DNA from: Ptychomitrium polyphyllum
Taxonomy: Eukaryota
DNA: 64,000 nucleotides
Direction of reading: 5' to 3'
Assembly: GCA_973851085.1 (NCBI GenBank)
Contig: OZ316775.1
Location: 12,710,001 to 12,774,000 of the forward strand
In this document: positions 2,066-33,347 of the stretch, one piece after another
Position numbering within the stretch: the stretch's first letter is position 1
Layout of the letters: the number at the start of each line of letters is the position of its first letter
Program-made: the position numbers and the translations under genes
The notes under the pieces: generated by a model
What the model saw: only the letters and a program-made list of their open reading frames with translations
Told to the model about the DNA's origin: nothing
Database searches by the model: none

Positions 2066-2083
2066 CTCCCACTTTGCTACTGG

Positions 2084-8942: not shown

Positions 8943-9403
8943 GTAATCACAACATCCGACTCGTCCAATGGCTTGTCCACAATGGCAACTTGCCTTGCAA
9001 GGGCCTTCAACTTGTTCACATGCGCCTTGAGGTCGTGGCCTTCTTCCATCTTGCAGTTCAAGAGCTTCCTCTTTGTGAAGATGATGTTGGAGAGGTTCTT
9101 GCTCTCATAGATGTTGCAAAGCGTCTTCCACGCTTCTGCCGGTCCAGTGCAAGAGATGATATGGGCGAAGTTGGCATCATCAAGGTTGGTGGCAAGGATG
9201 CCAAAAGCCTTCTTCTCACGACGCTGGAACTCCTTCCTCTCCTTTGCATCTGCCGACAATGGTGGAGCAACCTCACTCTCATCTATGATGTCCCAAAGGT
9301 CCATAGAAGCCAACGAGAGCTCCATCCTAACCTTCCATTGGTAGAAGTTATCACCATGAAACTTTTGAATGACCCTAAGACCTTCACCTTCACTCGAAGC
9401 CAT
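8943..9403 (-). pseudogene. Copy E0, upstream part: N-terminal gag
   Basis: Continues exactly from 1637 once 1638-8942 and one TSD copy are removed. Confidence 0.9.
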
Positions 9404-9853
9404 GGCTTAAGAAGAGAGGTAACAAAACAAACCTTCAAACGAACTATTTCCTTGACTCCTATACTTCTCACAAGTCTTCACAACTATGAGTCCCAAGAAA
9501 AACCTTTCAACTCACTATGTCCACTCAATGAGCACACATATCAATGAACTCACAAGACAACAACACCAAGCACAACAAAATGGTGTTAGGAAGCTTCAAT
9601 CCAACAAAGACACTATCAAGGTCTTATCACCACTCAAAACAACTCACTATCCAAGGAGTTTCAACAACCACAACCCTACTAGAGCTCAAGAAACATCAAA
9701 CCAAGCACCTACATGTGCAAAACTTCAAAGTTAGGCGTTTCTAACTCTATCTTCAATAACTATGAAGTGATCTTGCTCCACACAAGAACAACAACTACAA
9801 AACACTTCAAGCTACTTCAAAAGGCACAACTAAGTGTGAGTGGGCCCATAACC

Positions 9854-10281
9854 TATTGAAGAAATGCAACAAAGCTAGTACAGCAAGCAAGAAGAGAGAG
9901 AGCAAAGTTGCAACAAGAGAAGTGTGGAGCAAGATGACTCCCACTTCCAAAACCCCTTTACTTATACTTGAGAGTCATCCACCAAAATGTGCCACTTGGC
10001 GGCCATGCATTTGCCTCCACTATATGAGTGACATGTGGCGGCTAACTCTAACCCTAGCCGCCGTAGCCGCCACCCTAACCCTAACGGCCGCCCTAACCCT
10101 AATGGCCGCCCTAACCCTAGCCGCCATACAAAACCCTTGTTGCCTTTTCTTAACCCTAGCCTCCATATCCCCTATAGCCTCTTTCCTCACACTCCTTTGA
10201 CCATTAGCAACATATCATGCTCTAAGTCTACACAAGGATACTTCAACTAGGATTACTTTATATGTTTCACACTTTGCAACC
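9854..10281 (-). repeat. LTR L4, shared between E0 and E3; terminal TG mutated to GG
   Basis: PBS on one side, PPT on the other, no TSD. 10281 is C where other LTRs have A. Confidence 0.93.
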
Positions 10282-10299
10282 CTCCCACTTTGCTACTGG

Positions 10300-13200
10300 T
10301 CAAAGGGCCTTTAATCCAATTGACCTCGTCAACAACTGGTGTCTATCTCTTACCAATGCTTTTGTCAACAAATCAGCAAGCATGCCCTCTGTTGCACAAT
10401 ACCTCATATCTATCACTCCATCTTCAATCTTCTCTCTTATGAAGTGATGTTGGATGTCAATGTGCTTTGTTCGTGAGTGATGCTTGGGATTCTTGGCAAA
10501 GGCAAGACATCCCTGATTGTCACACATGATGGGCGTTGCACCCAGTTGTACAAGTCCAATGTCCTCCAAGAGTTGCCTCAGCCACATTGCTTCCATTGCA
10601 CCATGACTTGCCGCCATGTACTCCGCCTCCATGGTTGACCTTGCAATTGTGGGTTGCCTCTTGCAGTTCCAAGAGATGGCTCCCACTCCAACAAAGAACA
10701 CATACCCCGTTGTGGAGCGCCTATCATTTGCATCTCCAGCCCAATCCGCGTCGCAAAATCCCTGCAACTCAATGTTATCACCTCCCAGACACAACACAAA
10801 GTCCAAGGTGCCCTTCAAGTACCTCATGATCCTCTTGATGGTTGCCCAGTGCATGGGGCCGGCCTTGGACATGTGTTGGCTCACAACACTCACCGAAAAC
10901 GCAAGATCAAACCTTGTGCCCACCATGGCATACATGAGGCACCCCACTCCGGCCTTGTATGGAACGCCTTGCATTTCGCCCTCCACTTGAGCATACTCCT
11001 CATCACTTAGCTTCATCAACCTCAAGTTTGCCTCCAAAGGCGTTTCCACTGGCTTGCAGTCTTCCATGTTGAATCGCTTCAACACCTCTTCCATGTACTT
11101 CTTCTGGCTCATGGTGATGGTCCTCTTTGCACGATCCCTCACAAATTCCACTCCAAGACAATAGTGTAACTCGCCCAAATCACTCATCTCAAACTCCTGC
11201 TCTAATTTGGCCTTCAACCACTCTAGCTTCTCCGAAAGGTTGGCCAACATGATCAAGTCATCCACATAGAGAATCACAATCAACAAGAATTCCATGGTCT
11301 GCATCACATACAAGGAATGATCCGCCTCACTTCTCACAAACCCTTCCTTCCTAAAGAATGCATCAATGCGTTGGTACCATGCCCTTGGCGATTGCTTAAG
11401 CCCGTACAAGGCCTTCTTCAACTTGCAAACAAGGTGTTCCAAGCCTTCATGTACAAACCCTGGAGGTTGCTCCATGTAGATGTCTTCTTCCAACTCTCCA
11501 TTTAGAAAGGCCGTCTTCACATCCATCTGGTGCACCTCCAAGTCCATTGCCGCAGCTATGGCCAAGATGGTCCTAATGGTGGTGAACTTGGCCACAGGTG
11601 CAAAGGTCTCATTGAAGTCCACACCAGCAACTTGTGAGTATCCTTTGGCAACTAGCCTTGCCTTGTGCCTCACAATTGCACCCGAAGCATCCCTCTTGGT
11701 TCTAAACACCCACTTGCAACCTATGCAAGAACGATTTGGAGGAAGTTGAGTCAAGTGCCATGTGCCATTGTCCATCAGCGACTTGTACTCCTCTTCCATG
11801 GCCTTCTCTCAGTTCATTGCATCCGTGGACTTCAAGGCATCGCACATAGTTAAAGGATCAACGAGGAGGGCAACATTGGCATGTTCTGCACTCACTTTTG
11901 GAAAGATGTGGTTCTTCCACCATTCACCAAGTGGCCTCCTCTCCCTCATGGGATACCTCCTTCCACTCATTGCAGGCCTCTCTTCTTGTAATGCATCCCC
12001 TTCTCCTTCACTTAGAGGATTATCCTCCTCACTTGGATGAAGATGCTCACCATCATCTTGTGAGGCTCCTCTGCTGGTCTTAAGGGTGGAAGTCGCCTTG
12101 CTCTCCCCCTCCATTGTTCCTTCACCTCCATCCACATCTCCACCTTCTTCCTTGGTTGTTGTGGAGGATGTGTCCACAATCACACCATTACTCCCACTTG
12201 GACACATCCCCAAGTGCTCACAAGCACTCTTGTGCTCCAAGAACTCAACATCACGACTCTTGATGATCTTCTTGCTCTCCACACACATCAACCTATATGC
12301 TTTGCTGCCCTCACAGTAACCCAAGAACACACACTTTGTACCCTTTGCATCAAGCTTGGACCTCATGCAATCTGGAACCTTTGCATATGCAAGGCATCCG
12401 AAGGTCCTCATGTGTGAAACACAAGGCTTCTTACCACTCCAAGCTTCTTCGGGGGTCATGGATGCAAGGGCACTTGTGGGGCACCTATTTCTTGTGTACA
12501 CCGCATTCACCACCGCTTCCGCCCACAACTCATGTCCAAGATGTTGGGCATGAAGCATGCTCCTCGCCATCTCCACAATGGTGCGATTTGCCCTCTCAGC
12601 AACTCCATTTTGTTGTGGAGTGTATGGAGTGGAGGTTTGCCTTGCAATGCCTTCACTCCTCAACAAGTCATCAAAACATTTGGATAAGAACTCACCACCA
12701 TTATCCGAACGCAACACCTTGATCTTGGACTCACATTGCTTCTCCACGAGCGCCTTGAACTCCTTGAATCTTGCGAAGCATTCGCTCTTGGCCTTGAGGA
12801 TGAACACCCATACTTTCCTCGAATAATCATCAATGAAGGTGAGGAAGTACCTTGCTCCCCCGATGGATGGAGTCCTCATAGGCCCGCACACGTCGGAATG
12901 CACAATCTCCAACAATTTGCTTGCACGACTTGCCACTCCACTTGGAAACGACGCCCTTTGCTGCTTGCCTTGGATGCAAGCCTCACAAGCAAGTTCCTTG
13001 GCCTTGTGGCATGTTGTACCGAGATCCAAGCCGCTTACCATGCCTTGGAGCTCCTTCATGGCCTTCACATTGAGGTGCCCAAGGCGCCCATGCCATATGC
13101 CAAACTTGTCTTGGTCTTGCCTCCCACAACAACCTCCACCACAATGGAACCCATTCCAATGGCCTCCACCACGCCATTGTCACCCATGAGCACACTAGTG

Positions 13201-14105
13201 GCTGCAATTGCCTCATAAGTATGGAATGAGCACTTGTAAGGAGTCATGTGCTTTGTGGCGCCCGAATCAACTATCCACTTGGACAAGGCCGCCATAGGCG
13301 CCCCCTCGCTTGCCATGAAGGCACAATCACCACCTCCAAGGTGGTCCATCACATGGTTGGCATCCTCCCTCTCTCCTTTCTTCGCCTTGAAGCAATTTCG
13401 AGCAAAATGACCTGGTTTTCCACACACAAAGCGCATTCGAAGATTTGGACGTTGATTAGAATAGGTGGCCTTGCCTTGCCTCGAGAAGAGGGCGGAGTCC
13501 TCACTTGAATTCGCCTTCTCCTTCCTCTTGGTGTCCTCGTGGCTCAATCTCGCCGTCACATAGTCCATGGTGAGGTCCTTGATGGGAATGGACTCCAAGG
13601 CCACTATGAGATAGCTATAGGACTCCGGCAAGCTCATGAGCAATGTAATCACAACATCCGACTCGTCCAATGGCTTGTCCACAATGGCAACTTGCCTTGC
13701 AAGGGCCTTCAACTTGTTCACATGCGCCATGAGGTCGTGGCCTTCTTCCATCTTGCAGTTCAAGAGCTTCCTCTTTGTGAAGATGATGTTGGAGAGGTTC
13801 TTGCTCTCATAGATGTTGCAAAGCGTCTTCCACGCTTCTGCCGGTCCAGTGCAAGAGATGATATGGGCGAAGTTGGCATCATCAAGGTTGGTGGCAAGGA
13901 TGCCAAAAGCCTTCTTCTCACGACGCTGGAACTCCTTCCTCTCCTTTGCATCTGCCGACAATGGTGGAGCAACCTCACTCTCATCTATGATGTCCCAAAG
14001 GTCCATAGAAGCCAACGAGAGCTCCATCCTAACCTTCCATTGGTAGAAGTTATCACCATGAAACTTTTGAATGACCCTAAGACCTTCACCTTCACTCGAA
14101 GCCAT
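10300..14105 (-). pseudogene. Copy E3 gag-pol with 238-bp frameshifting deletion (13109-13118), W-stop at 11809-11811 and zinc-knuckle Cys-to-Arg change
   Basis: ORFs 13065-14105, 11809-13068 and 10300-11799. Confidence 0.92.
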
Positions 14106-14555
14106 GGCTTAAGAAGAGAGGTAACAAAACAAACCTTCAAACGAACTATTTCCTTGACTCCTATACTTCTCACAAGTCTTCACAACTATGAGTCCCAAGA
14201 AAAACCTTTCAACTCACTATGTCCACTCAATGAGCACACATATCAATGAACTCACAAGACAACAACACCAAGCACAACAAAATGGTGTTAGGAAGCTTCA
14301 ATCCAACAAAGACACTATCAAGGTCTTATCACCACTCAAAACAACTCACTATCCAAGGAGTTTCAACAACCACAACCCTACTAGAGCTCAAGAAACATCA
14401 AACCAAGCACCTACATGTGCAAAACTTCAAAGTTAGGCGTTTCTAACTCTATCTTCAATAACTATGAAGTGATCTTGCTCCACACAAGAACAACAACTAC
14501 AAAACACTTCAAGCTACTTCAAAAGGCACAACTAAGTGTGAGTGGGCCCATAACC

Positions 14556-14983
14556 TATTGAAGAAATGCAACAAAGCTAGTACAACAAGCAAGAAGAGAG
14601 AGAGCAAAGTTGCAACAAGAGAAGTGTGGAGCAAGATGACTCCCACTTCCAAAACCCCTTTACTTATACTTGAGAGTCATCCACCAAAATGTGCCACTTG
14701 GCGGCCATGCATTTGCCTCCACTATATGAGTGACATGTGGCAGCTAACTCTAACCCTAGCCGCCGTAGCCGCCACCCTAACCCTAACGGCCGCCCTAACC
14801 CTAATGGCCGCCCTAACCCTAGCCGCCATACAAAACCCTTGTTGCCTTTTCTTAACCCTAGCCTCCATATCCCCTATAGCCTCTTTCCTCACACTCCTTT
14901 GACCATTAGCAACATATCATGCTCTAAGTCTACACAAGGATACTTCAACTAGGATTACTTTATATGTTTCACACTTTGCAACA
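14556..14983 (-). repeat. LTR L5 (428 bp), shared between E3 and E4
   Basis: PBS on the left, PPT on the right. Confidence 0.95.
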
Positions 14984-15001
14984 CTCCCACTTTGCTACTG
15001 G

Positions 15002-17859
15002 TCAAAGGGCCTTTAATCCAATTGACCTCGTCAACAACTGGTGTCTATCTCTTACCAATGCTTTTGTCAACAAATCAGCAAGCATGCCCTCTGTTGCACA
15101 ATACCTCATATCTATCACTCCATCTTCAATCTTCTCTCTTATGAAGTGATGTTGGATGTCAATGTGCTTTGTTCGTGAGTGATGCTTGGGATTCTTGGCA
15201 AAGGCAAGACATCCCTGATTGTCACACATGATGGGCGTTGCACCCAGTTGTACAAGTCCAATGTCCTCCAAGAGTTGCCTCAGCCACATTGCTTCCATTG
15301 CACCATGACTTGCCGCCATGTACTCCGCCTCCATGGTTGACCTTGCAATTGTGGGTTGCCTCTTGCAGTTCCAAGAGATGGCTCCCACTCCAACAAAGAA
15401 CACATACCCCGTTGTGGAGCGCCTATCATTTGCATCTCCAGCCCAATCCGCGTCACAAAATCCCTGCAACTCAATGTTATCACCTCCCAGACACAACACA
15501 AAGTCCAAGGTGCCCTTCAAGTACCTCATGATCCTCTTGATGGTTGCCCAGTGCATGGGGCCGGCCTTGGACATGTGTTGGCTCACAACACTCACCGAAA
15601 ACGCAAGATCAAACCTTGTGCCCACCATGGCATACATGAGGCATCCCACTCCGGCCTTGTATGGAACGCCTTGCATTTCGCCCTCCACTTGAGCACACTC
15701 CTCATCACTTAGCTTCATCAACCTCAAGTTTGCCTCCAAAGGCGTTCCCACTGGCTTGCAGTCTTCCATGTTGAATCGCTTCAACACCTCTTCCATGTAC
15801 TTCTTCTGGCTCATGGTGATGGTCCTCTTTGCACGATCCCTCACAAATTCCACTCCAAGACAATAGTGTAACTCGCCCAAATCACTCATCTCAAACTCCT
15901 GCTCTAATTTGGCCTTCAACCACTCTAGCTTCTCCGAAAGGTTGGCCAACATGATCAAGTCATCCACATAGAGAATCACAATCAACAAGAATTCCATGGT
16001 CTGCATCACATACAAGGAATGATCCGCCTCACTTCTCACAAACCCTTCCTTCCTAAAGAATGCATCAATGCGTTGGTACCATGCCCTTGGCGATTGCTTA
16101 AGCCCGTACAAGGCCTTCTTCAACTTGCAAACAAGGTGTTCCAAGCCTTCATGTACAAACCCTGGAGGTTGCTCCATGTAGATGTCTTCTTCCAACTCTC
16201 CATTTAGAAAGGCCGTCTTCACATCCATCTGGTGCACCTCCAAGTCCATTGCTGCAGCTATGGCCAAGATGGTCCTAATGGTGGTGAACTTGGCCACAGG
16301 TGCAAAGGTCTCATTGAAGTCCACACCAGCAACTTGTGAGTATCCTTTGGCAACTAGCCTTGCCTTGTGCCTCACAATTGCACCCGAAAAATCCCTCTTG
16401 CTTCTAAACACCCACTTGCAACCTATGCAAGAACGATTTGGAGGAAGTTGAGTCAAGTGCCATGTGCCATTGTCCATCAGCGACTTGTACTCCTCTTCCA
16501 TGGCCTTCTCCCAGTTCATTGCATCCGTGGACTTCAAGGCATCGCACATAGTTAAAGGATCAACGAGGAGGGCAACATTGGCATGTTCTGCACTCACTTT
16601 TGGAAAGATGTGGTTCTTCCACCATTCACCAAGTGGCCTCCTCTCCCTCATGGGATACCTCCTTCCACTCATTGCAGGCCTCTCTTCTTGTAATGCATCC
16701 CCTTCTCCTTCACTTAGAGGATTATCCTCCTCACTTGGATGAAGATGCTCACCATCATCTTGTGAGGCTCCTCTGCTGGTCTTAAGGGTGGAAGTCGCCT
16801 TGCTCTCCCCCTCCATTGTTCCTTCACCTCCATCCACATCTCCACCTTCTTCCTTGGTTGTTGTGGAGGATGTGTCCACAATCACACCATTACTCCCACT
16901 TGGACACATCCCCAAGTGCTCACAAGCACTCTTGTGCTCCAAGAACTCAACATCACGACTCTTGATGATCTTCTTGCTCTCCACACACATCAACCTATAT
17001 GCTTTGCTGCCCTCACAGTAACCCAAGAACACACACTTTGTACCCTTTGCATCAAGCTTGGACCTCATGCAATCTGGAACCTTTGCATTTGCAAGGCATC
17101 CGAAGGTCCTCATGTGTGAAACACAAGGCTTCTTACCACTCCAAGCTTCTTCGGGGGTCATGGATGCAAGGGCACTTGTGGGGCACCTATTTCTTGTGTA
17201 CACCGCATTCACCACCGCTTCCGCCCACAACTCATGTCCAAGATGTTGGGCATGAAGCATGCTCCTCGCCATCTCCACAATGGTGCGATTTACCCTCTCA
17301 GCAACTCCATTTTGTTGTGGAGTGTATGGAGTGGAGGTTTGCCTTGCAATGCCTTCACTCCTCAACAAGTCATCAAAACATTTGGATAAGAACTCACCAC
17401 CATTATCCGAACGCAACACCTTGATCTTGGACTCACATTGCTTCTCCACAAGCGCCTTGAACTCCTTGAATCTTGCAAAGCATTCGCTCTTGGCCTTGAG
17501 GATGAACACCCATACTTTCCTCGAATAATCATCAATGAAGGTGAGGAAGTACCTTGCTCCCCCGATGGATGGAGTCCTCATAGGCCCGCACACGTCGGAA
17601 TGCACAATCTCCAACAATTTGCTTGCACGACTTGCCACTCCACTTGGAAACGACGCCCTTTGCTGCTTGCCTTGGATGCAAGCCTCACAAGCAAGTTCCT
17701 TGGCCTTGTGGCATGTTGTACCGAGATCCAAGCCGCTTACCATGCCTTGGAGCTCCTTCATGGCCTTCACATTGAGGTGCCCAAGGCGCCCATGCCATAT
17801 GCCAAACTTGTCTTGGTCTTGCCTCCCACAACAACCTCCACCACAATGGAACCCATTCC
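15002..17859 (-). pseudogene. Copy E4, downstream part (IN-RT-RH; 238-bp deletion junction at 17811-17820), split by E5
   Basis: Ends at TSD ATTCC 17855-17859. Confidence 0.9.
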
Positions 17860-18269
17860 TATTGAAGAAATGCAACAAAGCTAGTACAACAAGCAAGAAG
17901 AGAGAGAGCAAAGTTGCAACAAGAGAAGTGTGGAGCAAGATGACTCGCACTTCCAAAACCCCTTTACTTATACTTGAGAGTCATCCACCAAAATGTGCCA
18001 CTTGGCGGCCATGCATTTGCCTCTACTATATGAGTGACATGTGGCGGCTAACCCTAACCCTAGCCGCCGGAGCCGCCACCCTAACCCTAACGGCCGCCCT
18101 AACCCTAATGGCCATACAAAACCCTTGTTGCCTTTTCTTAACCCTAGCCTCCATATCCCCTATAGCCTCTTTCCTCACACTCCTTTGACCATTAGCAACA
18201 TATCATGCTCTAAGTCTACACAAGGATACTTCAACTAGGATTACTTTATATGTTTCACACTTTGCAACA

Positions 18270-18279
18270 CTCCCACTTT
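18270..18279 (-). other. Polypurine tract AAAGTGGGAG (representative)
   Basis: Immediately precedes the 3' LTR TG, only ~8 bp after the pol stop. Confidence 0.8.
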
Positions 18280-18287
18280 GCTACTGG

Positions 18288-21200
18288 TCAAAGGGCCTTT
18301 AGTCCAATTGACCTCGTCAACAACTGGTGTCTATCTCTTACCAATGCTTTTGTCAACAAATCAGCAAGCATACCCTCTGTTGCACAATACCTCATATCTA
18401 TCACTCCATCTTCAATCTTCTCTCTTATGAAGTGATGTTGGATGTCAATGTGCTTTGTTCGTGAGTGATGCTTGGGATTCTTGGCAAAGGCAAGACATCC
18501 TTGATTGTCACACATGATGGGCGTTGCACCCAGTTGTACAAGTCCAATGTCCTCCAAGAGTTGCCTCAGCCACATTGCTTCCATTGCACCATGACTTGCC
18601 GCCATGTACTCCGCCTCCATGGTTGACCTTGCAATTGTGGGTTGCCTCTTGCAGTTCCAAGAGATGGCTCCCACTCCAACAAAGAACACATACCCCGTTG
18701 TGGAGCGCCTATCATTTGCATCTCCAGCCCAATCCGCATCACAAAATCCCTGCAACTCAATGTTATCACCTCCCAGACACAACACAAAGTCCAAGGTGCC
18801 CTTCAAGTACCTCATGATCCTCTTGATGGTTGCCCAGTGCATGGGGCCGGCCTTGGACATGTGTTGGCTCACAACACTCACCGAAAACGCAAGATCAAAC
18901 CTTGTGCCCACCATGGCATACATGAGGCACCCCACTCCGGCCTTGTATGGAACGCCTTGCATTTCGCCCTCCACTTGAGCATACTCCTCATCACTTAGCT
19001 TCATCAACCTCAAGTTTGCCTCCAAAGGCGTTCCCACTGGCTTGCAGTCTTCCATGTTGAATCGCTTCAACACCTCTTCCATGTACTTCTTCTGGCTCAT
19101 GGTGATGGTCCTCTTTGCACGATCCCTCACAAATTCCACTCCAAGACAATAGTGTAACTCGCCCAAATCACTCATCTCAAACTCCTGCTCTAATTTGGCC
19201 TTCAACCACTCTAGCTTCTCCGAAAGGTTGGCCAACATGATCAAGTCATCCACATAGAGAATCACAATCAACAAGAATTCCATGGTCTGCATCACATACA
19301 AAGAATGATCCGCCTCACTTCTCACAAACCCTTCCTTCCTAAAGAATGCATCAATGCGTTGGTACCATGCCCTTGGCGATTGCTTAAGCCCGTACAAGGC
19401 CTTCTTCAACTTGCAAACAAGGTGTTCCAAGCCTTCATGTACAAACCCTGGAGGTTGCTCCATGTAGATGTCTTCTTCCAACTCTCCATTTAGAAAGGCC
19501 GTCTTCACATCCATCTGGTGCACCTCCAAGTCCATTGCCGCAGCTATGGCCAAGATGGTCCTAATGGTGGTGAACTTGGCCACAGGTGCAAAGGTCTCAT
19601 TGAAGTCCACACCAGCAACTTGTGAGTATCCTTTGGCAACTAGCCTTGCCTTGTGCCTCACAATTGCACCCGAAGCATCCCTCTTGGTTCTAAACACCCA
19701 CTTGCAACCTATGCAAGAACGATTTGGAGGAAGTTGAGTCAAGTGCCATGTGCCATTGTCCATCAGCGACTTGTACTCCTCTTCCATGGCCTTCTCCCAG
19801 TTCATTGCATCCGTGGACTTCAAGGCATCGCACATAGTTAAAGGATCAACGAGGAGGGCAACATTGGCATGTTCTGCACTCACTTTTGGAAAGATGTGGT
19901 TCTTCCACCATTCACCAAGTGGCCTCCTCTCCCTCATGGGATACCTCCTTCCACTCATTGCAGGCCTCTCTTCTTGTAATGCATTCCCTTCTCCTTCACT
20001 TAGAGGATTATCCTCCTCACTTGGATGAAGATGCTCACCATCATCTTGTGAGGCTTCTCTGCTGGTCTTAAGGGTGGAAGTCGCCTTGCTCTCCCCCTCC
20101 ATTGTTCCTTCACCTCCATCCACATCTCCACCTTCTTCCTTGGTTGTTGAGGATGTGTCCACAATCACACCATTACTCCCACTTGGACACATCTCCAAGT
20201 GCTCACAAGCACTCTTGTGCTCCAAGAACTCAACATCACGACTCTTGATGATCTTCTTGCTCTCCACACACATCAACCTATATGCTTTGCTGCCCTCACA
20301 ATAACCAAAGAACACACACTTTGTACCCTTTGCATCAAGCTTGGACCTCATGCAATCTGGAACCTTTGCATATGCAAGGCATCCGAAGGTCCTCATGTGT
20401 GAAACACAAGGCTTCTTACCACTCCAAGCTTCTTCAGGGGTCATGGATGCAAGAGCACTTGTGGGGCACCTATTTCTTGTGTACACCGCATTCACCACCG
20501 CTTCCGCCCACAACTCATGTCCAAGATGTTGGGCATGAAGCATGCTCCTCGCCATCTCCACAATGGTGCGATTTGCCCTCTCAGCAACTCCATTTTGTTG
20601 TGGAGTGTATGGAGTGGAGGTTTGCCTTGCAATGCCTTCACTCCTCAACAAGTCATCAAAACATTTGGATAAGAACTCACCACCATTATCCGAACGCAAC
20701 ACCTTGATCTTGGACTCACATTGCTTCTCCACGAGCGCCTTGAACTCCTTGAATCTTGCGAAGCATTCGCTCTTGGCCTTGAGGATGAACACCCATACTT
20801 TCCTCGAATAATCATCAATGAAGGTGAGGAAGTACCTTGCTCCCCCGATGGATGGAGTCCTCATAGGCCCGCACACGTCGGAATGCACAATCTCCAACAA
20901 TTTGCTTGCACGACTTGCCACTCCACTTGGAAACGACGCCCTTTGCTGCTTGCCTTGGATGCAAGCCTCACAAGCAAGTTCCTTGGCCTTGTGGCATGTT
21001 GTACCGATATCCAAGCCGCTTACCATGCCTTGGAGCTCCTTCATGGCCTTCACATTGAGGTGCCCAAGGCGCCCATGCCATATGCCAAACTTGTCTTGGT
21101 CTTCAATGAACTCAGCAAAGGCCGCCACCTCCACTCCATTCACCTTCTTACACTTGATGAAGTACAAGTTGCCATCCCTCAACCCCGTGGCAACCACATC

Positions 21201-22328
21201 TCCACTCAATGACTTCACAATACATCCATTCACATTGAAATGAGCCACAAACCCTCCCATCACAAGTTTGCTCACCGAAAGGAGGTTGGACTTCATCTTT
21301 GGCACATGCAGCACGTCCTTGAAGGTGATCCTCTTGGTCTTGCCTCCCACAACAACCTCCACCACAATGGAACCCATTCCAATGGCCTCCACCACGCCAT
21401 TGTCACCCATGAGCACACTAGTGGCTGCAATTGCCTCATAAGTATGGAATGAGCACTTGTAAGGAGTCATGTGCTTTGTGGCGCCCGAATCAACTATCCA
21501 CTTGGATAGGGCCGCCATAGGCGCCCCCTCGCTTGCCATGAAGGCACAATCACCACCTCCAAGGTGGTCCATCACATGGTTGGCATCCTCCCTCTCTCCT
21601 TTCTTGGCCTTGAAGCAATTTCGAGCAAAATGACCTGGTTTTCCACACACAAAGCACGTTCGAAGATTTGGACGTTGATTAGAATAGGTGGCCTTGCCTT
21701 GCCTCGAGAAGAGGGCGGAGTCCTCACTTGAATTCGCCTTCTCCTTCCTCTTGGTGTCCTCGTGGCTCAATCTCGCCGTCACATAGTCCATGGTGAGGTC
21801 CTTGATGGGAATGGACTCCAAGGCCACTATGAGATAGCTATAGGACTCCGGCAAGCTCATGAGCAATGTAATCACAACATCCGACTCCTCCAATGGCTTG
21901 TCCACAATGGCAACTTGCCTTGCAAGGGCCTTCAACTTGTTAACATGCGCCATGAGGTCGTGGCCTTCTTCCATCTTGCAGTTCAAGAGCTTCCTCTTTG
22001 TGAAGATGATGTTGGAGAGGTTCTTGCTCTCATAGATGTTGCAAAGCGTCTTCCACGCTTCTGCTGGTCCAGTGCAAGAGATGATATGGGCGAAGTTGGC
22101 ATCATCAAGGTTGGTGGCAAGGATGCCAAAAGCCTTCTTCTCACGACGCTGGAACTCCTTCCTCTCCTTTGCATCTGCCGACAATGGTGGAGCAACCTCA
22201 CTCTCATCTATGATGTCCCAAAGGTCCATAGAAGCCAACGAGAGCTCCATCCTAACCTTCCATTGGTAGAAGTTATCACCATGAAACTTTTGAATGACCC
22301 TAAGACCTTCACCTTCACTAGAAGCCAT
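18288..22328 (-). CDS. Copia gag-pol polyprotein, 1346 aa (E5)
   Basis: Zn knuckle CFVCGKPGHFARNC; protease WIVDSGAT; IN WHGRLGH..CEAC, HSDVCGP, RSDNGGEF, NGVAER; RT QMDVKTAFLNG, LYGLKQ, YVDD; RNase H DADWAG, EAEY, CDNQ, ADLLTKAL. Confidence 0.97.
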   Translation of the reverse strand: MASSEGEGLRVIQKFHGDNFYQWKVRMELSLASMDLWDIIDESEVAPPLSADAKERKEFQRREKKAFGILATNLDDANFAHIISCTGPAEAWKTLCNIYESKNLSNIIFTKRKLLNCKMEEGHDLMAHVNKLKALARQVAIVDKPLEESDVVITLLMSLPESYSYLIVALESIPIKDLTMDYVTARLSHEDTKRKEKANSSEDSALFSRQGKATYSNQRPNLRTCFVCGKPGHFARNCFKAKKGEREDANHVMDHLGGGDCAFMASEGAPMAALSKWIVDSGATKHMTPYKCSFHTYEAIAATSVLMGDNGVVEAIGMGSIVVEVVVGGKTKRITFKDVLHVPKMKSNLLSVSKLVMGGFVAHFNVNGCIVKSLSGDVVATGLRDGNLYFIKCKKVNGVEVAAFAEFIEDQDKFGIWHGRLGHLNVKAMKELQGMVSGLDIGTTCHKAKELACEACIQGKQQRASFPSGVASRASKLLEIVHSDVCGPMRTPSIGGARYFLTFIDDYSRKVWVFILKAKSECFARFKEFKALVEKQCESKIKVLRSDNGGEFLSKCFDDLLRSEGIARQTSTPYTPQQNGVAERANRTIVEMARSMLHAQHLGHELWAEAVVNAVYTRNRCPTSALASMTPEEAWSGKKPCVSHMRTFGCLAYAKVPDCMRSKLDAKGTKCVFFGYCEGSKAYRLMCVESKKIIKSRDVEFLEHKSACEHLEMCPSGSNGVIVDTSSTTKEEGGDVDGGEGTMEGESKATSTLKTSREASQDDGEHLHPSEEDNPLSEGEGNALQEERPAMSGRRYPMRERRPLGEWWKNHIFPKVSAEHANVALLVDPLTMCDALKSTDAMNWEKAMEEEYKSLMDNGTWHLTQLPPNRSCIGCKWVFRTKRDASGAIVRHKARLVAKGYSQVAGVDFNETFAPVAKFTTIRTILAIAAAMDLEVHQMDVKTAFLNGELEEDIYMEQPPGFVHEGLEHLVCKLKKALYGLKQSPRAWYQRIDAFFRKEGFVRSEADHSLYVMQTMEFLLIVILYVDDLIMLANLSEKLEWLKAKLEQEFEMSDLGELHYCLGVEFVRDRAKRTITMSQKKYMEEVLKRFNMEDCKPVGTPLEANLRLMKLSDEEYAQVEGEMQGVPYKAGVGCLMYAMVGTRFDLAFSVSVVSQHMSKAGPMHWATIKRIMRYLKGTLDFVLCLGGDNIELQGFCDADWAGDANDRRSTTGYVFFVGVGAISWNCKRQPTIARSTMEAEYMAASHGAMEAMWLRQLLEDIGLVQLGATPIMCDNQGCLAFAKNPKHHSRTKHIDIQHHFIREKIEDGVIDMRYCATEGMLADLLTKALVRDRHQLLTRSIGLKAL

Positions 22329-23186
22329 GGCTTAAGAAGAGTGGTAACAAAACAAACCTTCAAACGAACTATTTCCTTGACTCCTATGCTTCTCACAAGT
22401 CTTCACAACTATGAGTCCCAAGAAAAACCTTTCAACTCACTATGTCCACTCAATGAGCACACATATCAATGATCTCACAAGATAACAACACCAAGCACAA
22501 CAAAATGGTGTTAGGAAGCTTGAATCCAACAAAGACACTATCAAGGTCTTATCACCACTCAAAACAACTCACTATCCAAGGAGTTTCAACAACCACAACC
22601 CCAAGAGCTTAAGAAACATCAAACCAAGCACCTACATGTGCAAAACCTCAAAGTTAGGCGTTTCTAACTCTATCTTCAATAACTATGAAGTGATCTTGCT
22701 CCACACAAGAACAACAACTACAAAACACTTCAAGCTACTTCAAAAGGCACAACTAAGAGTGTGTGGGCCCATAACCTATTGAAGAAATGCAACAAAGCTA
22801 GTACAACAAGCAAGAAGAGAGAGAGCAAAGTTGCAACAAGAGAAGTGTGGAGCAAGATGACTCGCACTTCCAAAACCCCTTTACTTATACTTGAGAGTCA
22901 TCCACCAAAATGTGCCACTTGGCGGCCATGCATTTGCCTCTACTATATGAGTGACATGTGGCGGCTAACCCTAACCCTAGCCGCCGTAGCCGCCACCCTA
23001 ACCCTAATGGCCGCCCTAACCCTAATGGCCATACAAAACCCTTGTTGCCTTTTCTTAACCCTAGCCTCCATATCCCCTATAGCCTCTTTCCTCACACTCC
23101 TTTGACCATTAGCAACATATCATGCTCTAAGTCTACACAAGGATACTTCAACTAGGATTACTTTATATGTTTCACACTTTGCAACA

Positions 23187-24139
23187 ATTCCAATGGCCTC
23201 CACCACGCCATTGTCACCCATGAGCACACTAGTGGCTGCAATTGCCTCATAAGTATGGAATGAGCACTTGTAAGGAGTCATGTGCTTGGTGGCGCCCGAA
23301 TCAACTATCCACTTGGACAAGGCCGCCATAGGCGCCCCCTCGCTTGCCATGAAGGCACAATCACCACCTCCAAGGTGGTCCATCACATGGTTGGCATCCT
23401 CCCTCTCTCCTTTCTTCGCCTTGAAGCAATTTCGAGCAAAATGACCTGGTTTTCCACACACAAAGCGCATTCGAAGATTTGGACGTTGATTAGAATAGGT
23501 GGCCTTGCCTTGCCTCGAGAAGAGGGCGGAGTCCTCACTTGAATTCGCCTTCTCCTTCCTCTTGGTGTCCTCGTGGCTCAATCTCGCCGTCACATAGTCC
23601 ATGGTGAGGTCCTTGATGGGAATGGACTCCAAGGCCACTATGAGATAGCTATAGGACTCCGGCAAGCTCATGAGCAATGTAATCACAACATCCGACTCGT
23701 CCAATGGCTTGTCCACAATGGCAACTTGCCTTGCAAGGGCCTTCAACTTGTTCACATGCGCCATGAGGTCGTGGCCTTCTTCCATCTTGCAGTTCAAGAG
23801 CTTCCTCTTTGTGAAGATGATGTTGGAGAGGTTCTTGCTCTCATAGATGTTGCAAAGCGTCTTCCACGCTTCTGCCGGTCCAGTGCAAGAGATGATATGG
23901 GCGAAGTTGGCATCATCAAGGTTGGTGGCAAGGATGCCAAAAGCCTTCTTCTCACGACGCTGGAACTCCTTCCTCTCCTTTGCATCTGCCGACAATGGTG
24001 GAGCAACCTCACTCTCATCTATGATGTCCCAAAGGTCCATAGAAGCCAACGAGAGCTCCATCCTAACCTTCCATTGGTAGAAGTTATCACCATGAAACTT
24101 TTGAATGACCCTAAGACCTTCACCTTCACTCGAAGCCAT
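23187..24139 (-). pseudogene. Copy E4, upstream part (gag and start of protease)
   Basis: Resumes at ATTCC; carries the RMRFVC knuckle variant. Confidence 0.9.
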
Positions 24140-24589
24140 GGCTTAAGAAGAGAGGTAACAAAACAAACCTTCAAACGAACTATTTCCTTGACTCCTATAC
24201 TTCTCACAAGTCTTCACAACTATGAGTCCCAAGAAAAACCTTTCAACTCACTATGTCCACTCAATGAGCACACATATCAATGAACTCACAAGACAACAAC
24301 ACCAAGCACAACAAAATGGTGTTAGGAAGCTTCAATCCAACAAAGACACTATCAAGGTCTTATCACCACTCAAAACAACTCACTATCCAAGGAGTTTCAA
24401 CAACCACAACCCTACTAGAGCTCAAGAAACATCAAACCAAGCACCTACATGTGCAAAACTTCAAAGTTAGGCGTTTCTAACTCTATCTTCAAAAACTATG
24501 AAGTGATCTTGCTCCACACAAGAACAACAACTACAAAACACTTCAAGCTACTTCAAAAGGCACAACTAAGTGTGAGTGGGCCCATAACC

Positions 24590-25017
24590 TATTGAAGAAA
24601 TGCAACAAAGCTAGTACAACAAGCAAGAAGAGAGAGAGCAAAGTTGCAACAAGAGAAGTGTGGAGCAAGATGACTCCCACTTCCAAAACCCCTTTACTTA
24701 TACTTGAGAGTCATCCACCAAAATGTGCCACTTGGCGGCCATGCATTTGCCTCCACTATATGAGTGACATGTGGCAGCTAACTCTAACCCTAGCCGCCGT
24801 AGCCGCCACCCTAACCCTAACGGCCGCCCTAACCCTAATGGCCGCCCTAACCCTAGCCGCCATACAAAACCCTTGTTGCCTTTTCTTAACCCTAGCCTCC
24901 ATATCCCCTATAGCCTCTTTCCTCACACTCCTTTGACCATTAGCAACATATCATGCTCTAAGTCTACACAAGGATACTTCAACTAGGATTACTTTATATG
25001 TTTCACACTTTGCAACA
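24590..25017 (-). repeat. LTR L8 (428 bp), shared between E4 and E6
   Basis: PBS on the left, PPT on the right; same private variant (GTGGCAGCTA) as L5. Confidence 0.95.
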
Positions 25018-25035
25018 CTCCCACTTTGCTACTGG

Positions 25036-28000
25036 TCAAAGGGCCTTTAATCCAATTGACCTCGTCAACAACTGGTGTCTATCTCTTACCAATGCTTTTG
25101 TCAACAAATCAGCAAGCATGCCCTCTGTTGCACAATACCTCATATCTATCACTCCATCTTCAATCTTCTCTCTTATGAAGTGATGTTGGATGTCAATGTG
25201 CTTTGTTCGTGAGTGATGCTTGGGATTCTTGGCAAAGGCAAGACATCCCTGATTGTCACACATGATGGGCGTTGCACCCAGTTGTACAAATCCAATGTCC
25301 TCCAAGAGTTGCCTCAGCCACATTGCTTCCATTGCACCATGACTTGCCGCCATGTACTCCGCCTCCATGGTTGACCTTGCAATTGTGGGTTGCCTCTTGC
25401 AGTTCCAAGAGATGGCTCCCACTCCAACAAAGAACACATACCCCGTTGTGGAGCGCCTATCATTTGCATCTCCAGCCCAATCCGCGTCGCAAAATCCCTG
25501 CAACTCAATGTTATCACCTCCCAGACACAACACAAAGTCCAAGGTGCCCTTCAAGTACCTCATGATCCTCTTGATGGTTGCCCAGTGCATGGGGCCGGCC
25601 TTGGACATGTGTTGGCTCACAACACTCACCGAAAACGCAAGATCAAACCTTGTGCCCACCATGGCATACATGAGGCATCCCACTCCGCCCTTGTATGGAA
25701 CGCCTTGCATTTCGCCCTCCACTTGAGCACACTCCTCATCACTTAGCTTCATCAACCTCAAGTTTGCCTCCAAAGGCGTTCCCACTGGCTTGCAGTCTTC
25801 CATGTTGAATCGCTTCAACACCTCTTCCATGTACTTCTTCTGGCTCATGGTGATGGTCCTCTTTGCACGATCCCTCACAAATTCCACTCCAAGACAATAG
25901 TGTAACTCGCCCAAATCACTCATCTCAAACTCCTGCTCTAATTTGGCCTTCAACCACTCTAGCTTCTCCGAAAGGTTGGCCAACATGATCAAGTCATCCA
26001 CATAGAGAATCACAATCAACAAGAATTCCATGGTCTGCATCACATACAAAGAATGATCCGCCTCACTTCTCACAAACCCTTCCTTCCTAAAGAATGCATC
26101 AATGCGTTGGTACCATGCCCTTGGCGATTGCTTAAGCCCGTACAAGGCCTTCTTCAACTTGCAAACAAGGTGTTCCAAGCCTTCATGTACAAACCCTGGA
26201 GGTTGCTCCATGTAGATGTCTTCTTCCAACTCTCCATTTAGAAAGGCCGTCTTCACATCCATCTGGTGCACCTCCAAGTCCATTGCCGCAGCTATGGCCA
26301 AGATGGTCCTAATGGTGGTGAACTTGGCCACAGGTGCAAAGGTCTCATTGAAGTCCACACCAGCAACTTGTGAGTATCCTTTGGCAACTAGCCTTGCCTT
26401 GTGCCTCACAATTGCACCCGAAGCATCCCTCTTGCTTCTAAACACCCACTTGCAACCTATGCAAGAACGATTTGGAGGAAGTTGAGTCAAGTGCCATGTG
26501 CCATTGTCCATCAGCGACTTGTACTCCTCTTCCATGGCCTTCTCCCACTTCATTGCATCCGTGGACTTCAAGGCATCGCACATAGTTAAAGGATCAACGA
26601 GGAGGGCAACATTGGCATGTTCTGCACTCACTTTTGGAAAGATGTGGTTCTTCCACCATTCACCAAGTGGCCTCCTCTCCCTCATGGGATACCTCCTTCC
26701 ACTCATTGCAGGCCTCTCTTCTTGTAATGCATCCCCTTCTCCTTCACTTAGAGGATTATCCTTCTCACTTGGATGAAGATGCTCACCATCATCTTGTGAG
26801 GCTCCTCTGCTGGTCTTAAGGGTGGAAGTCGCCTTGCTCTCCCCCTCCATTGTTCCTTCACCTCCATCCACATCTCCACCTTCTTCCTTGGTTGTTGTGG
26901 AGGATGTGTCCACAATCACACCATTACTCCCACTTGGACACATCCCCAAGTGCTCACAAGCACTCTTGTGCTCCAAGATCTCAACATCACGACTCTTGAT
27001 GATCTTCTTGCTCTCCACACACATCAACCTATATGCTTTGCTGCCCTCACAGTAACCCAAGAACACACACTTTGTACCCTTTGCATCAAGCTTGGACCTC
27101 ATGCAATCTTGAACCTTTGCATATGCAAGGCATCCGAAGGTCCTCATGTGTGAAACACAAGGCTTCTTACCACTCCAAGCTTCTTCGGGGGTCATGGATG
27201 CAAGGGCACTTGTGGGGCACCTATTTCTTGTGTACACCGCATTCACCACCGCTTCCGCCCACAACTCATGTCCAAGATGTTGGGCATGAAGCATGCTCCT
27301 CGCCATCTCCACAATGGTGCGATTTGCCCTCTCAGCAACTCCATTTTGTTGTGGAGTGTATGGAGTGGAGGTTTGCCTTGCAATGCCTTCACTCCTCAAC
27401 AAGTCATCAAAACATTTGGATAAGAACTCACCACCATTATCCGAACGCAACACCTTGATCTTGGACTCACATTGCTTCTCCACAAGCGCCTTGAACTCCT
27501 TGAATCTTGCAAAGCATTCGCTCTTGGCCTTGAGGATGAACACCCATACTTTCCTCGAATAATCATCAATGAAGGTGAGGAAGTACCTTGCTCCCCCGAT
27601 GGATGGAGTCCTCATAGGCCCGCACACGTCGGAATGCACAATCTCCAACAATTTGCTTGCACGACTTGCCACTCCACTTGGAAACGACGCCCTTTGCTGC
27701 TTGCCTTGGATGCAAGCCTCACAAGCAAGTTCCTTGGCCTTGTGGCATGTTGTACCGAGATCCAAGCCGCTTACCATGCCTTGGAGCTCCTTCATGGCCT
27801 TCACATTGAGGTGCCCAAGGCGCCCATGCCATATGCCAAACTTGTCTTGGTCTTCAATGAACTCAGCAAAGGCCGCCACCTCCACTCCATTCACCTTCTT
27901 ACACTTGATGAAGTACAAGTTGCCATCCCTCAACCCCGTGGCAACCACATCTCCACTCAATGACTTCACAATACATCCATTCACATTGAAATGAGCCACA

Positions 28001-29079
28001 AACCCTCCCATCACAAGTTTGCTCACCGAAAGGAGGTTGGACTTCATCTTTGGCACATGCAGCACGTCCTTGAAGGTGATCCTCTTGGTCTTGCCTCCCA
28101 CAACAACCTCCACCACAATGGAACCCATTCCAATGGCCTCCACCACGCCATTGTCACCCATGAGCACACTAGTGGCTGCAATTGCCTCATAAGTATGGAA
28201 TGAGCACTTGTAAGGAGTCATGTGCTTTGTGGCGCCCGAATCAACTATCCACTTGGACAAGGCCGCCATAGGCGCCCCCTCGCTTGCCATGAAGGCACAA
28301 TCACCACCTCCAAGGTGGTCCATCACATGGTTGGCATCCTCCCTCTCTCCTTTCTTCGCCTTGAAGCAATTTCGAGCGAAATGACCTGGTTTTCCACACA
28401 CAAAGCACGTTCGAAGATTTGGACGTTGATTAGAATAGGTGGCCTTGCCCTGCCTCGAGAAGAGGGCGGAGTCCTCACTTGAATTCGCCTTCTCCTTCCT
28501 CTTGGTGTCCTCGTGGCTCAATCTTGCCGTCACATAGTCCATGGTGAGATCCTTGATGGGAATGGACTCCATGGCCACTATGAGATAGCTATAGGACTCC
28601 GGCAAGCTCATGAGCAATGTAATCACAACATCCGACTCGTCCAATGGCTTGTCCACAATGGCAACTTGCCTTGCAAGGGCCTTCAACTTGTTCACATGCG
28701 CCATGAGGTCGTGGCCTTCTTCCATCTTGCAGTTCAAGAGCTTCCTCTTTGTGAAGATGATGTTGGAGAGGTTCTTGCTCTCATAGATGTTGCAAAGCGT
28801 CTTCCACGCTTCTGCCGGTCCAGTGCAAGAGATGATATGGGCGAAGTTGGCATCATCAAGGTTGGTGGCAAGGATGCCAAAAGCCTTCTTCTCACGACGC
28901 TGGAACTCCTTCCTCTCCTTTGCATCTGCCGACAATGGTGGAGCAACCTCACTCTCATCTATGATGTCCCAAAGGTCCATAGAAGCCAACGAGAGCTCCA
29001 TCCTAACCTTCCATTGGTAGAAGTTATCACCATGAAACTTTTGAATGACCCTAAGACCTTCACCTTCACTCGAAGCCAT
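25036..29079 (-). CDS. Copia gag-pol polyprotein, 1347 aa (E6)
   Basis: Uninterrupted ORF with all catalytic motifs. Confidence 0.96.
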   Translation of the reverse strand: MASSEGEGLRVIQKFHGDNFYQWKVRMELSLASMDLWDIIDESEVAPPLSADAKERKEFQRREKKAFGILATNLDDANFAHIISCTGPAEAWKTLCNIYESKNLSNIIFTKRKLLNCKMEEGHDLMAHVNKLKALARQVAIVDKPLDESDVVITLLMSLPESYSYLIVAMESIPIKDLTMDYVTARLSHEDTKRKEKANSSEDSALFSRQGKATYSNQRPNLRTCFVCGKPGHFARNCFKAKKGEREDANHVMDHLGGGDCAFMASEGAPMAALSKWIVDSGATKHMTPYKCSFHTYEAIAATSVLMGDNGVVEAIGMGSIVVEVVVGGKTKRITFKDVLHVPKMKSNLLSVSKLVMGGFVAHFNVNGCIVKSLSGDVVATGLRDGNLYFIKCKKVNGVEVAAFAEFIEDQDKFGIWHGRLGHLNVKAMKELQGMVSGLDLGTTCHKAKELACEACIQGKQQRASFPSGVASRASKLLEIVHSDVCGPMRTPSIGGARYFLTFIDDYSRKVWVFILKAKSECFARFKEFKALVEKQCESKIKVLRSDNGGEFLSKCFDDLLRSEGIARQTSTPYTPQQNGVAERANRTIVEMARSMLHAQHLGHELWAEAVVNAVYTRNRCPTSALASMTPEEAWSGKKPCVSHMRTFGCLAYAKVQDCMRSKLDAKGTKCVFLGYCEGSKAYRLMCVESKKIIKSRDVEILEHKSACEHLGMCPSGSNGVIVDTSSTTTKEEGGDVDGGEGTMEGESKATSTLKTSRGASQDDGEHLHPSEKDNPLSEGEGDALQEERPAMSGRRYPMRERRPLGEWWKNHIFPKVSAEHANVALLVDPLTMCDALKSTDAMKWEKAMEEEYKSLMDNGTWHLTQLPPNRSCIGCKWVFRSKRDASGAIVRHKARLVAKGYSQVAGVDFNETFAPVAKFTTIRTILAIAAAMDLEVHQMDVKTAFLNGELEEDIYMEQPPGFVHEGLEHLVCKLKKALYGLKQSPRAWYQRIDAFFRKEGFVRSEADHSLYVMQTMEFLLIVILYVDDLIMLANLSEKLEWLKAKLEQEFEMSDLGELHYCLGVEFVRDRAKRTITMSQKKYMEEVLKRFNMEDCKPVGTPLEANLRLMKLSDEECAQVEGEMQGVPYKGGVGCLMYAMVGTRFDLAFSVSVVSQHMSKAGPMHWATIKRIMRYLKGTLDFVLCLGGDNIELQGFCDADWAGDANDRRSTTGYVFFVGVGAISWNCKRQPTIARSTMEAEYMAASHGAMEAMWLRQLLEDIGFVQLGATPIMCDNQGCLAFAKNPKHHSRTKHIDIQHHFIREKIEDGVIDMRYCATEGMLADLLTKALVRDRHQLLTRSIGLKAL

Positions 29080-29529
29080 GGCTTAAGAAGAGAGGTAACA
29101 AAACAAACCTTCAAACGAACTATTTCCTTGACTCCTATGCTTCTCACAAGTCTTCACAACTATGAGTCCCAAGAAAAACCTTTCAACTCACTATGTCCAC
29201 TCAATGAGCACACATATCAATGAACTCACAAGACAACAACACCAAGCACAACAAAATGGTGTTAGGAAGCTTGAATCCAACAAAGACACTATCAAGGTCT
29301 TATCACCACTCAAAACAACTCACTATCCAAGGAGTTTCAACAACCTCAACCCTACTAGAGCTCAAGAAACATCAAACCAAGCACCTACATGTGCAAAACT
29401 TCAAAGTTAGGCGTTTCTAACTATATCTTCAAAAACTATGAAGTGATCTTGCTCCACACAAGAACAACAACTACAAAACACTTCAAGCTACTTCAAAAGG
29501 CACAACTAAGAGTGAGTGGGCCCATAACC

Positions 29530-29957
29530 TATTGAAGAAATGCAACAAAGCTAGTACAACAAGCAAGAAGAGAGAGAGCAAAGTTGCAACAAGAGAAGTG
29601 TGGAGCAAGATGACTCGCACTTCCAAAACCCCTTTACTTATACTTGAGAGTCATCCACCAAAATGTGCCACTTGGCGGCCATGCATTTGCCTCCACTATA
29701 TGAGTGACATGTGGCGGCTAACTCTAACCCTAGCCGCCGTAGCCGCCACCCTAACCCTAACGGCCGCCCTAACCCTAATGGCCGCCCTAACCCTAGCCGC
29801 CATACAAAACCCTTGTTGCCTTTTCTTAACCCTAGCCTCCATATCCCCTATAGCCTCTTTCCTCACACTCCTTTGACCATTAGCAACATATCATGCTCTA
29901 AGTCTACACAAGGATACTTCAACTAGGATTACTTTATATGTTTCACACTTTGCAACA
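29530..29957 (-). repeat. LTR L9 (428 bp), 5' LTR of E6, inserted into the family B element
   Basis: PBS on the left; family B coding sequence on the right. Confidence 0.95.
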
Positions 29958-31156: not shown

Positions 31157-31789
31157 TGTGCACAAGTACACTCAATCACCTCAAAACGGTCCTTTTAGGC
31201 CCAAATGTGCACTTATTTACTCCTATCAACGCCAAATGAGCCCTACCAACGCTCAATCAACCTCAAATGCTTCCTCACCACTCAATTGGGCTTGAAATGT
31301 GCACTTTTGCACCCTCTCCACTCAAATCGGCCCTCAAGTGCTTCCAACAATGGACAAATGCCCTATACACGCACTAACACTCAAATGTGCACTTATGCAC
31401 CTCAAACACACCAATCAGCCTTCAATGGCTTCACATACGCATCCAAAGCACTCAAGCTCTCAAAGCACAAGCTTCAAATACTAACAAGCATCAATTGTGC
31501 ACAAACGCACCTCACATGAAACTCAAATACTAAATGCAAAGCTTACAAGCCTATAACGATACTTCCACTGCTCTAAACTTCTCCAAACGCCTCCAAATGG
31601 GAACTTGTGCACCACCAAAACTTGTAACGCCTCCAAGCACCTCCAAATCAGCCCTTGTGGCTCTCCAAATGCTCAAAGGCACCAAAATTGCACAAATGCA
31701 CATGCAACAAAAGACTCTCAAGATGCTCTACCAAACACTAACGCAATCAAATCTCAACTCACACAACAAGCATGTGTGGGTCCATAACC

Positions 31790-32021
31790 TAATGAAATAC
31801 ACAAAGTATGCGAACAATGCTTGGAATGAGAGTAATCATCCCATTCCTTGCTCTGCCCTTTATTCTCTTCAAACCACATCAGTCTTTCAATCAATATGGG
31901 ATAAATCTTCGACCCACTCCAAACAATATGGGTTCATTCTAATGTTCTTCATTTCAACTAATAACCACAATCCCATACTAACTCTAAGACTACGAGCAAT
32001 CTAATGCTCTATTCTCTAACA
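31790..32021 (-). repeat. Putative 5' LTR of family B (232 bp, TGTTA...CATTA), with PBS GGTTATGGACCCAC at 31776-31789
   Basis: Bounded by a half-tRNA PBS (1 mismatch) and a sharp switch to family A sequence. Only one copy is in the window. Confidence 0.7.
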
Positions 32022-32126: not shown

Positions 32127-32226
32127 NNNNNNNNNNNNNNNNNNNNNNNNNNNNNNNNNNNNNNNNNNNNNNNNNNNNNNNNNNNNNNNNNNNNNNNNNN
32201 NNNNNNNNNNNNNNNNNNNNNNNNNN
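32127..32226. other. Assembly gap (100 N, true size unknown)
   Basis: Run of N. Confidence 1.
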
Positions 32227-33329: not shown

Positions 33330-33347
33330 CTCCCACTTTGCTACTGG

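Follow-up and report, generated by a model that had tools for sequence, protein, structure and literature searches.

Copia units sharing single LTRs form a chain in a likely centromere-type cluster of the moss Ptychomitrium polyphyllum

The locus and its retrotransposon family

The window analysed here is a stretch of 64,000 bp from Ptychomitrium polyphyllum (assembly GCA_973851085.1, contig OZ316775.1, positions 12,710,001 to 12,774,000 of the forward strand). Self-BLAST showed that positions 1-49889 are made up almost entirely of one LTR retrotransposon family, at about 99% identity and mostly on the minus strand (Table 1). Together with LTR mapping across the window, it revealed 13 near-full LTRs of one family, all on the minus strand, and two further LTRs that are older and inverted. 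A full copy is 5368 bp long, with LTRs of 428 bp whose termini are TG..TA rather than TG..CA.

The undeleted copy E6 has the domain order Gag, zinc knuckle, protease-region beta-barrel, integrase and RT, which is that of copia elements, with Pfam matches to gag (28-198), Pol_BBD (278-360), rve (480-577) and RVT_2 (860-1105); open frames of 1313-1348 codons were found in four copies. Thus the features by which Ty1/copia elements are recognised are all present: Gag-protease-integrase-RT between LTRs, a PBS, a PPT and a 5-bp TSD. The PPT is AAAGTGGGAG and the PBS GGTTATGGGCCCA. The 13 nt of the PBS match a segment inside the tRNA-Met(i) oligonucleotide printed in PMC1797187; the PBS is therefore of the half-tRNA-Met type, which has been described in Osser, Bryco and some Gymco-II elements (PMC6317226). 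From its sequence the element is a Ty1/copia retrotransposon and, as the host is a moss, we call it a candidate Bryco/RLC5-like member; its 27 closest homologues are 56-73% identical and have names that give no lineage label. TSD length was 5 bp in both matched pairs (n=2); a 4-bp TSD is the commonest in PMC6911290, where same-family nesting is also covered, and TSD length is a descriptive rather than a defining trait.

In mosses, one centromeric Bryco/RLC5 cluster per chromosome has been described (PMC7466625, PMC9946827, bioRxiv 10.1101/2023.05.19.541548). The cluster in the window resembles these in its moss host, in being a dense single-family cluster of full-length and deleted copia copies with a half-tRNA-Met PBS, and in having ordinary genes adjoining it. 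Assuming a contiguous scaffold, the adjacent exon belongs to a RIN2-like gene and matches Ceratodon purpureus at 91% and Physcomitrium patens at 84% over 78% of the query. The host is therefore likely a moss, and the cluster is a candidate for the moss centromere type. The host sequence at the upstream end of the chain described below belongs to a second copia family, with about 64% DNA identity and a similar PBS.

Table 1. Features of the chain and its surroundings (positions in the window)
Feature	Position	Strand	Remarks
E0 internal, downstream part, off window edge	1..1637	-	238-bp deletion, junction 1097-1106
Block nested in E0: L1-E1 internal-L2-E2 (5' third of element)-L3	1638..8942	-	three LTRs, outer TSD GTAAT
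E0 upstream part: gag start, leader, PBS	8943..9853	-	PBS 9841-9853
L4, shared LTR (3' LTR of E3, 5' LTR of E0)	9854..10281	-	first base G, not T
E3 internal	10282..14555	-	PPT 10282-10291, premature stop 11809-11811, deletion junction 13109-13118, PBS 14543-14555
L5, shared LTR (E4/E3)	14556..14983	-	identical in sequence to L8
E4 internal, downstream part	14984..17859	-	PPT 14984-14993, deletion junction 17811-17820
E5, complete two-LTR element nested in E4	17860..23186	-	TSD ATTCC, 1347-codon open frame
E4 internal, upstream part	23187..24589	-	PBS 24577-24589
L8, shared LTR (E6/E4)	24590..25017	-	
E6 internal, undeleted	25018..29529	-	open frame 25036-29082, 1348 codons stop to stop
L9, upstream terminal LTR of chain	29530..29957	-	flank repeats the LTR's terminal 9 bp
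Host sequence at upstream end of chain	29958..31790	-	second copia family: gag-protease part and leader
Scaffold gap	32127..32226	.	100 N
E8, 4802-bp tandem unit without PPT	38267..43068	-	chimera of E7 (32900-38266) and E9 (43069-47871)

Shared LTRs and the haplotypes of the units

The earlier note on this DNA had claimed that L4, L5 and L8 each have a PBS on one side, a PPT on the other and no TSD, and LTR mapping bore this out: these 3 of the 13 LTRs have a PPT upstream and a PBS downstream, while seven adjoin only a PBS and three only a PPT. Ten copies of the PBS-LTR junction motif and six of the LTR-PPT motif were counted, and neither appeared in 100 shuffles made for each. No TSD was found at the three shared LTRs, where the 5 bp on each side are the ends of the PBS and the PPT, and among the host-facing ends the only 5-bp TSD pairs were L1/L3 and L6/L7, with no pairs of 4 or 6 bp. 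In transcription order the chain reads L9-E6-L8-E4-L5-E3-L4-E0 and continues beyond the window edge: E0 resumes to the left of the nested block and then leaves the window, so that the chain's downstream end and outer TSD lie beyond view. At the other end the terminal LTR is present, 2.2 kb from the scaffold gap. The periods given in the note, 4702 bp for the deleted unit and 4940 bp for the full one, were also reproduced (4702, 4702 and 4940 bp), one of the 4702-bp values being obtained after subtraction of E5 and its TSD. Alternation of LTRs and internal regions, with three shared LTRs and 4-27 internal differences per pair, places the chain among tandem LTR retrotransposons as defined in PMC11899658.

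The 238-bp difference in period is accounted for by one deletion, which has 10-bp microhomology and is the same in E0, E3 and E4; it shifts the frame such that the first frame ends soon past the junction, within the protease region. It is absent from E6 and from the five other copies spanning the site (E1, E5, E7, E8 and E9), and all three deleted units in the window are adjacent to each other. Units were compared pairwise against the natural copy E6. On the 5' side of the deletion E0, E3 and E4 differ at only 1-3 of 1447 sites, and this part is closest to that of the undeleted E9 (5-7 sites). Over the internal regions, E3 and E4 differ at 15 of 4274 sites, and E4 is set apart from E6 by the deletion and by 26 of these 4274 sites. 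In the 3' part, E3, E4 and E6 mutually differ at 13-14 of 2827 sites, with E4 at 13/2827 from both E3 and E6; no donor for the 3' part of E3 was found in the window, the nearest copy being E8 (11/2689).

The differences between E3 and E4 are unevenly distributed, with 2 in the 5' 1875 bp against 16 in 3255 bp (p=0.017). Moreover, 9 of the 15 internal differences fall at sites where both alleles occur in other copies, when only 84 of 4512 sites are variable (binomial p ~1e-12), and recombination with other haplotypes is therefore required. After removal of 10 E6-private sites, E4 carries the E3 allele at 8 of 9 sites on the 5' side of the deletion, and on the 3' side it carries the E6 allele at 7 of 10 (Fisher p=0.02); a single-crossover history does not fit all sites, as the remaining 3 of the 10 go the opposite way. 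The LTRs of the chain mutually differ at 0-3 sites. L5 and L8 have in common an allele found in no other of the 13 LTRs, L4 differs from L5 at three positions, including its first base, and L9 differs at two. Mosaicism is family-wide, with 433 of 1035 informative site pairs incompatible and a minimum of 15 recombination events among 8 copies. Private variants (12/22) and shared variants (17/19) could not be told apart by their counts of synonymous against non-synonymous changes (p=0.34).

How the chain may have formed

It had been argued in the note that ordinary integration cannot yield such a chain. This stands in so far as integrase alone makes no PPT-LTR-PBS junction; however, integration followed by ordinary LTR-LTR recombination can do so, as reported for BARE1 (PMC7215508). 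Unequal crossover, one of the three routes the note had offered, proved the best fit to the adjacent deleted units, the duplicated private LTR and the two-parent pattern of E4. For these reasons, and because of two neighbouring rearrangements, we favour host homologous recombination, and hold the prospects to be even that the chain was built by unequal exchange and conversion among integrated neighbouring copies.

In such a history, one copy would have lost 238 bp between 10-bp direct repeats, leaving the protease truncated and integrase and RT out of frame, and the first PPT-LTR-PBS junction would have come from LTR-to-LTR exchange. Units may then have been added by unequal sister-chromatid exchange anywhere along the 4.7-4.9-kb period; in this way E4 plausibly combined a deleted-type 5' half with a 3' half related to E6, flanked on both sides by the same LTR. 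Conversion from other family members could have scattered shared polymorphisms, as could template switching in ancestral copies. The last to integrate would have been E5 and the E1/E2 block; the later insertions into E0 and E4 are of the integrase type, with 5-bp TSDs. Chimeric, partial and duplicated retrotransposons of a comparable kind are reported for maize centromere 10 (PMC4806543). Not every site is accounted for by one history, however, and the donorless 3' part of E3 and the three differences between L4 and L5 also tell against this reading.

The first of the neighbouring rearrangements, E8, repeats an LTR/internal insertion junction with a period of 4802-4803 bp and lacks the PPT end. 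Of 50 informative sites, 49 agree with a sequence that follows E9 and changes once to E7, with the breakpoint between 40298 and 40595. Judged on its sequence, this would fit an unequal exchange in which a nested element recombined with its host, and a cDNA carrying the LTR/internal junction of E8 would be unexpected. E8 differs from E9 at only two sites and is identical to E7 over 2770 bp; E8 itself could therefore be an assembly duplication, which would take away one supporting example. Among contigs of public runs, the E7/E8 LTR/internal joint is present in X5, in one contig whose depth gives no copy number. The second rearrangement, the E1/E2 block, has three LTRs within one 5-bp TSD, which suggests nested insertion followed by recombinational deletion between the nested copies. 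Both structures are poorly explained as cDNA products and thus point to DNA-level recombination in the cluster.

A distinctly less probable route is integrase-free recombination of helper-recombinant cDNAs with a resident LTR, the cDNAs being linear molecules, pre-joined multimers or 1-LTR circles; Tf1 behaves in this way at Tf2. A deleted element needs the Pol of a helper, so co-packaged RNAs would give recombinant cDNAs with a deleted 5' half and a helper 3' half; consistent with this, E3 and E4 are alike in the 5' half and divergent in the 3' half, and most of their internal differences lie at sites polymorphic in other copies. The identity of the two LTRs of E4, as in fresh cDNA, and the loss of the terminal TG in L4 also argue for it, as do the single-LTR tandems that Tf1 makes in this way (PMC11042837) and the ability of moss to concatenate foreign DNA and integrate it by homologous recombination (PMC1693892). 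However, cDNA capture alone does not explain three deleted copies side by side among many possible targets, nor does it readily account for E8 and the E1/E2 block, and nested E5 has two differences between its LTRs (2/410) whereas those of its host E4 have none, a weak point against it. The mosaicism does not separate DNA-level from cDNA-level routes, since template switching gives the same result (PMC5668417; Onsen). We are correspondingly doubtful of the more specific proposal that, in a moss Bryco cluster of the centromere type, the array of a defective non-autonomous element grows unit by unit, integrase-free, by capture of helper-recombinant cDNAs. If true, such an array would rely on the unusually efficient homologous recombination of moss, would be the equivalent, in a plant and in nature, of the Tf1 pathway and would stand early on the way from transposon-type to satellite-type centromeres.

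It is rather unlikely that the chain arose by deletion only, through separate same-orientation two-LTR insertions of a mobile deleted subfamily between which the intervening DNA was lost by recombination of facing LTRs, in which case the chain would record loss and not growth. E6 and E4 are different haplotypes, so independent elements may meet at their junction; the E1/E2 block is in keeping with such a deletion, some 4600 BARE1 structures of this kind have been cited from barley (PMC7215508), and in P. patens the truncated tRLC5 is expressed and polymorphic (PMC7466625). Yet fusion would need three neighbouring separate deleted insertions and three clean fusions, no deleted copy exists elsewhere among the copies in the window, and L5 and L8 have their private allele in common.

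We regard as very improbable an assembly artefact, in which separate two-LTR elements were mis-joined at their LTRs or one unit was falsely duplicated. The copies are 99.0-99.8% identical and the scaffold gap is close to the chain end, but the units differ in haplotype, in private variants and in the TSD-flanked insertions nested in them, their mosaic make-up argues against false duplication, the long open frames in four copies suggest accurate bases, and a long-read overlap limited to a 428-bp LTR would be unlikely. The 12 public runs found consist of contigs, which drop rare variants, and may come from other individuals, so that they weigh neither for nor against the chain. In four of them compared with 24440-28900, the longest of the pieces listed was 614 bp and none of those listed covered a shared LTR with both flanks. 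In four compared with 17786-17890, none of the 28 pieces listed out of 339 bridged the deletion or the E5 junction; the undeleted continuation was present in run contigs X5 (read to 87%), X6 and X7.

Least credible is rolling-circle amplification of a circle, also proposed in the note, or integration of a tandem cDNA made from read-through RNA (read-through being considered possible in PMC11899658): the units are head-to-tail as expected, but both routes predict near-identical units copied off a single template whereas those found are mosaics that differ by shared polymorphisms, with 15 (E3/E4) and 26 (E4/E6) differing sites as given above, one of them being undeleted, and the un-nested chain, at least about 17 kb, would be long for packaging.

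Relation to known tandems and implications

The chain has the same organisation as rice TLI1/TLI2 and the tandems of the IDENTAM survey (PMC11899658), with alternating units, shared internal LTRs and about 99% identity. That survey gives 266 candidate tandems in the rice pangenome, 11 in Arabidopsis, 11 in almond and 130 in cotton. As its account describes them, these belong for the most part to gypsy, both cases treated in detail are dimers within a single TSD, and the species covered include no moss; in contrast, the moss chain is copia, has at least four units, mixes deleted and intact haplotypes and received later nested insertions. The supplements of the survey list tandem families and may include comparable copia cases. 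In fission yeast, Tf1/Tf2 tandems likewise have a single LTR between units and chimeric units that switch inside the coding region, and there a cDNA origin was shown with a marked element (PMC11042837), whereas in the moss chain it is one reading. Further head-to-tail arrays of retrotransposon origin, lengthened through unequal exchange or conversion, are the Cassandra TRIM arrays and BARE1 three-LTR structures (PMC7215508) and maize CRM1TR/CRM4TR (PMC3648361). The monomers of TRIM and CRM-TR arrays are short and lack coding sequence, while those of the moss chain are close to full length, one of them intact.

Tandems with shared LTRs have already been published from rice, Arabidopsis, cotton, barley and yeast and for TRIMs; they are reported to be common in plants (PMC11899658) and are produced experimentally by cDNA recombination in fission yeast (PMC11042837). 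The chain is therefore a new instance and not a new growth mode, and the novelty implied by the note's 'second growth mode' found no support. As far as their main accounts go, the Bryco/RLC5 clusters (PMC7466625, PMC9946827, bioRxiv 10.1101/2023.05.19.541548) differ from the cluster in the window in that no shared-LTR chains are described, and a literature search, with subscription journals mostly and supplements wholly outside its scope, returned no report of such chains in moss Bryco clusters. A centromere atlas (bioRxiv 10.64898/2026.09.17.752431) describes moss Bryco clusters, ascribes the Geum case to integration and not tandem duplication, and presents transposon-type centromeres as shaped mainly by independent integration.

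The chain is thus a real structure of known type: a copia chain of at least four units sharing LTRs in a likely moss centromere-type cluster. How shared-LTR tandems form in plants is left open in PMC11899658, with recombination and complex insertion as the two candidates. At this locus SNPs distinguish the units, the deletion serves as a private marker and the nested insertions give an order of events; long reads from a few individuals could therefore tell unequal exchange from cDNA capture. In such clusters LTR-pair dating and element counts mislead, there being 13 LTRs here and only two matched TSD pairs. If the moss cluster is centromeric, post-integration duplication would act there in addition to integration.

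LTR termini and the upstream end of the chain

All 13 near-full LTRs of the family carry the non-canonical termini TG..TA, and their U3 region contains several 18-bp repeats that are TTAGGG-like. L4, one of the single LTRs shared within the chain, starts with GG rather than TG (window 10281); if carried by a cDNA, this start would be likely to spoil that end for integrase. A premature stop occurs at the same site in the chain unit E3 (11809) and in E1 (3593), which lies in the block nested in E0.

At the upstream terminal LTR, L9, window 29949-29966 consists of the terminal 9 bp of the LTR and a 9-bp flank that repeats them. Such a repeat could mean that the chain lies inside the end of another LTR, or it could stem from a small-scale duplication or from chance; the same flank can plausibly also be read in frame with the host copia. 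That host belongs to a second family, at about 64% DNA identity, whose protein is 70% identical to homologues.

Features in and around the cluster
Feature	Window position	Remarks
Block with three LTRs	1638-8942	One 5-bp TSD encloses whole block
Second copia family	29958-31790	Host of chain's upstream end; PBS similar
Older LTR, inverted and deleted	within 32227-33329	Adjoins gap
E8	38267-43068	4802-bp tandem unit without PPT
Older inverted copy	47872-49889	96% identity; cut off by 5' LTR of E9
RIN2/RIN3-like E3 ubiquitin ligase gene	about 52000-56100	About 2 kb beyond cluster edge

Copies beyond the gap

L10, likewise beside the gap (within 32227-33329), shows 10-14 differing sites in comparisons with the remaining 12 LTRs; this divergent stretch may be either an older copy or sequence of lower quality at the contig end. 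The same-family copy E7 has no TSD. E8 is a chimera of E7 and E9 with one switch, at 40298-40595, and may reflect unequal exchange or, alternatively, an assembly duplication. The older inverted copy forms the right edge of the cluster, and on the side of the RIN2/RIN3-like gene the transition to gene space is abrupt.

Possible self-nesting outside the window

When contigs of a public sequencing run (X5), possibly from another individual, were compared with window 24440-28900, they contained extra LTR-end-to-internal joints that are absent from the window (e.g. 25017 to 27263). These joints suggest further self-nested insertions elsewhere in the X5 genome.
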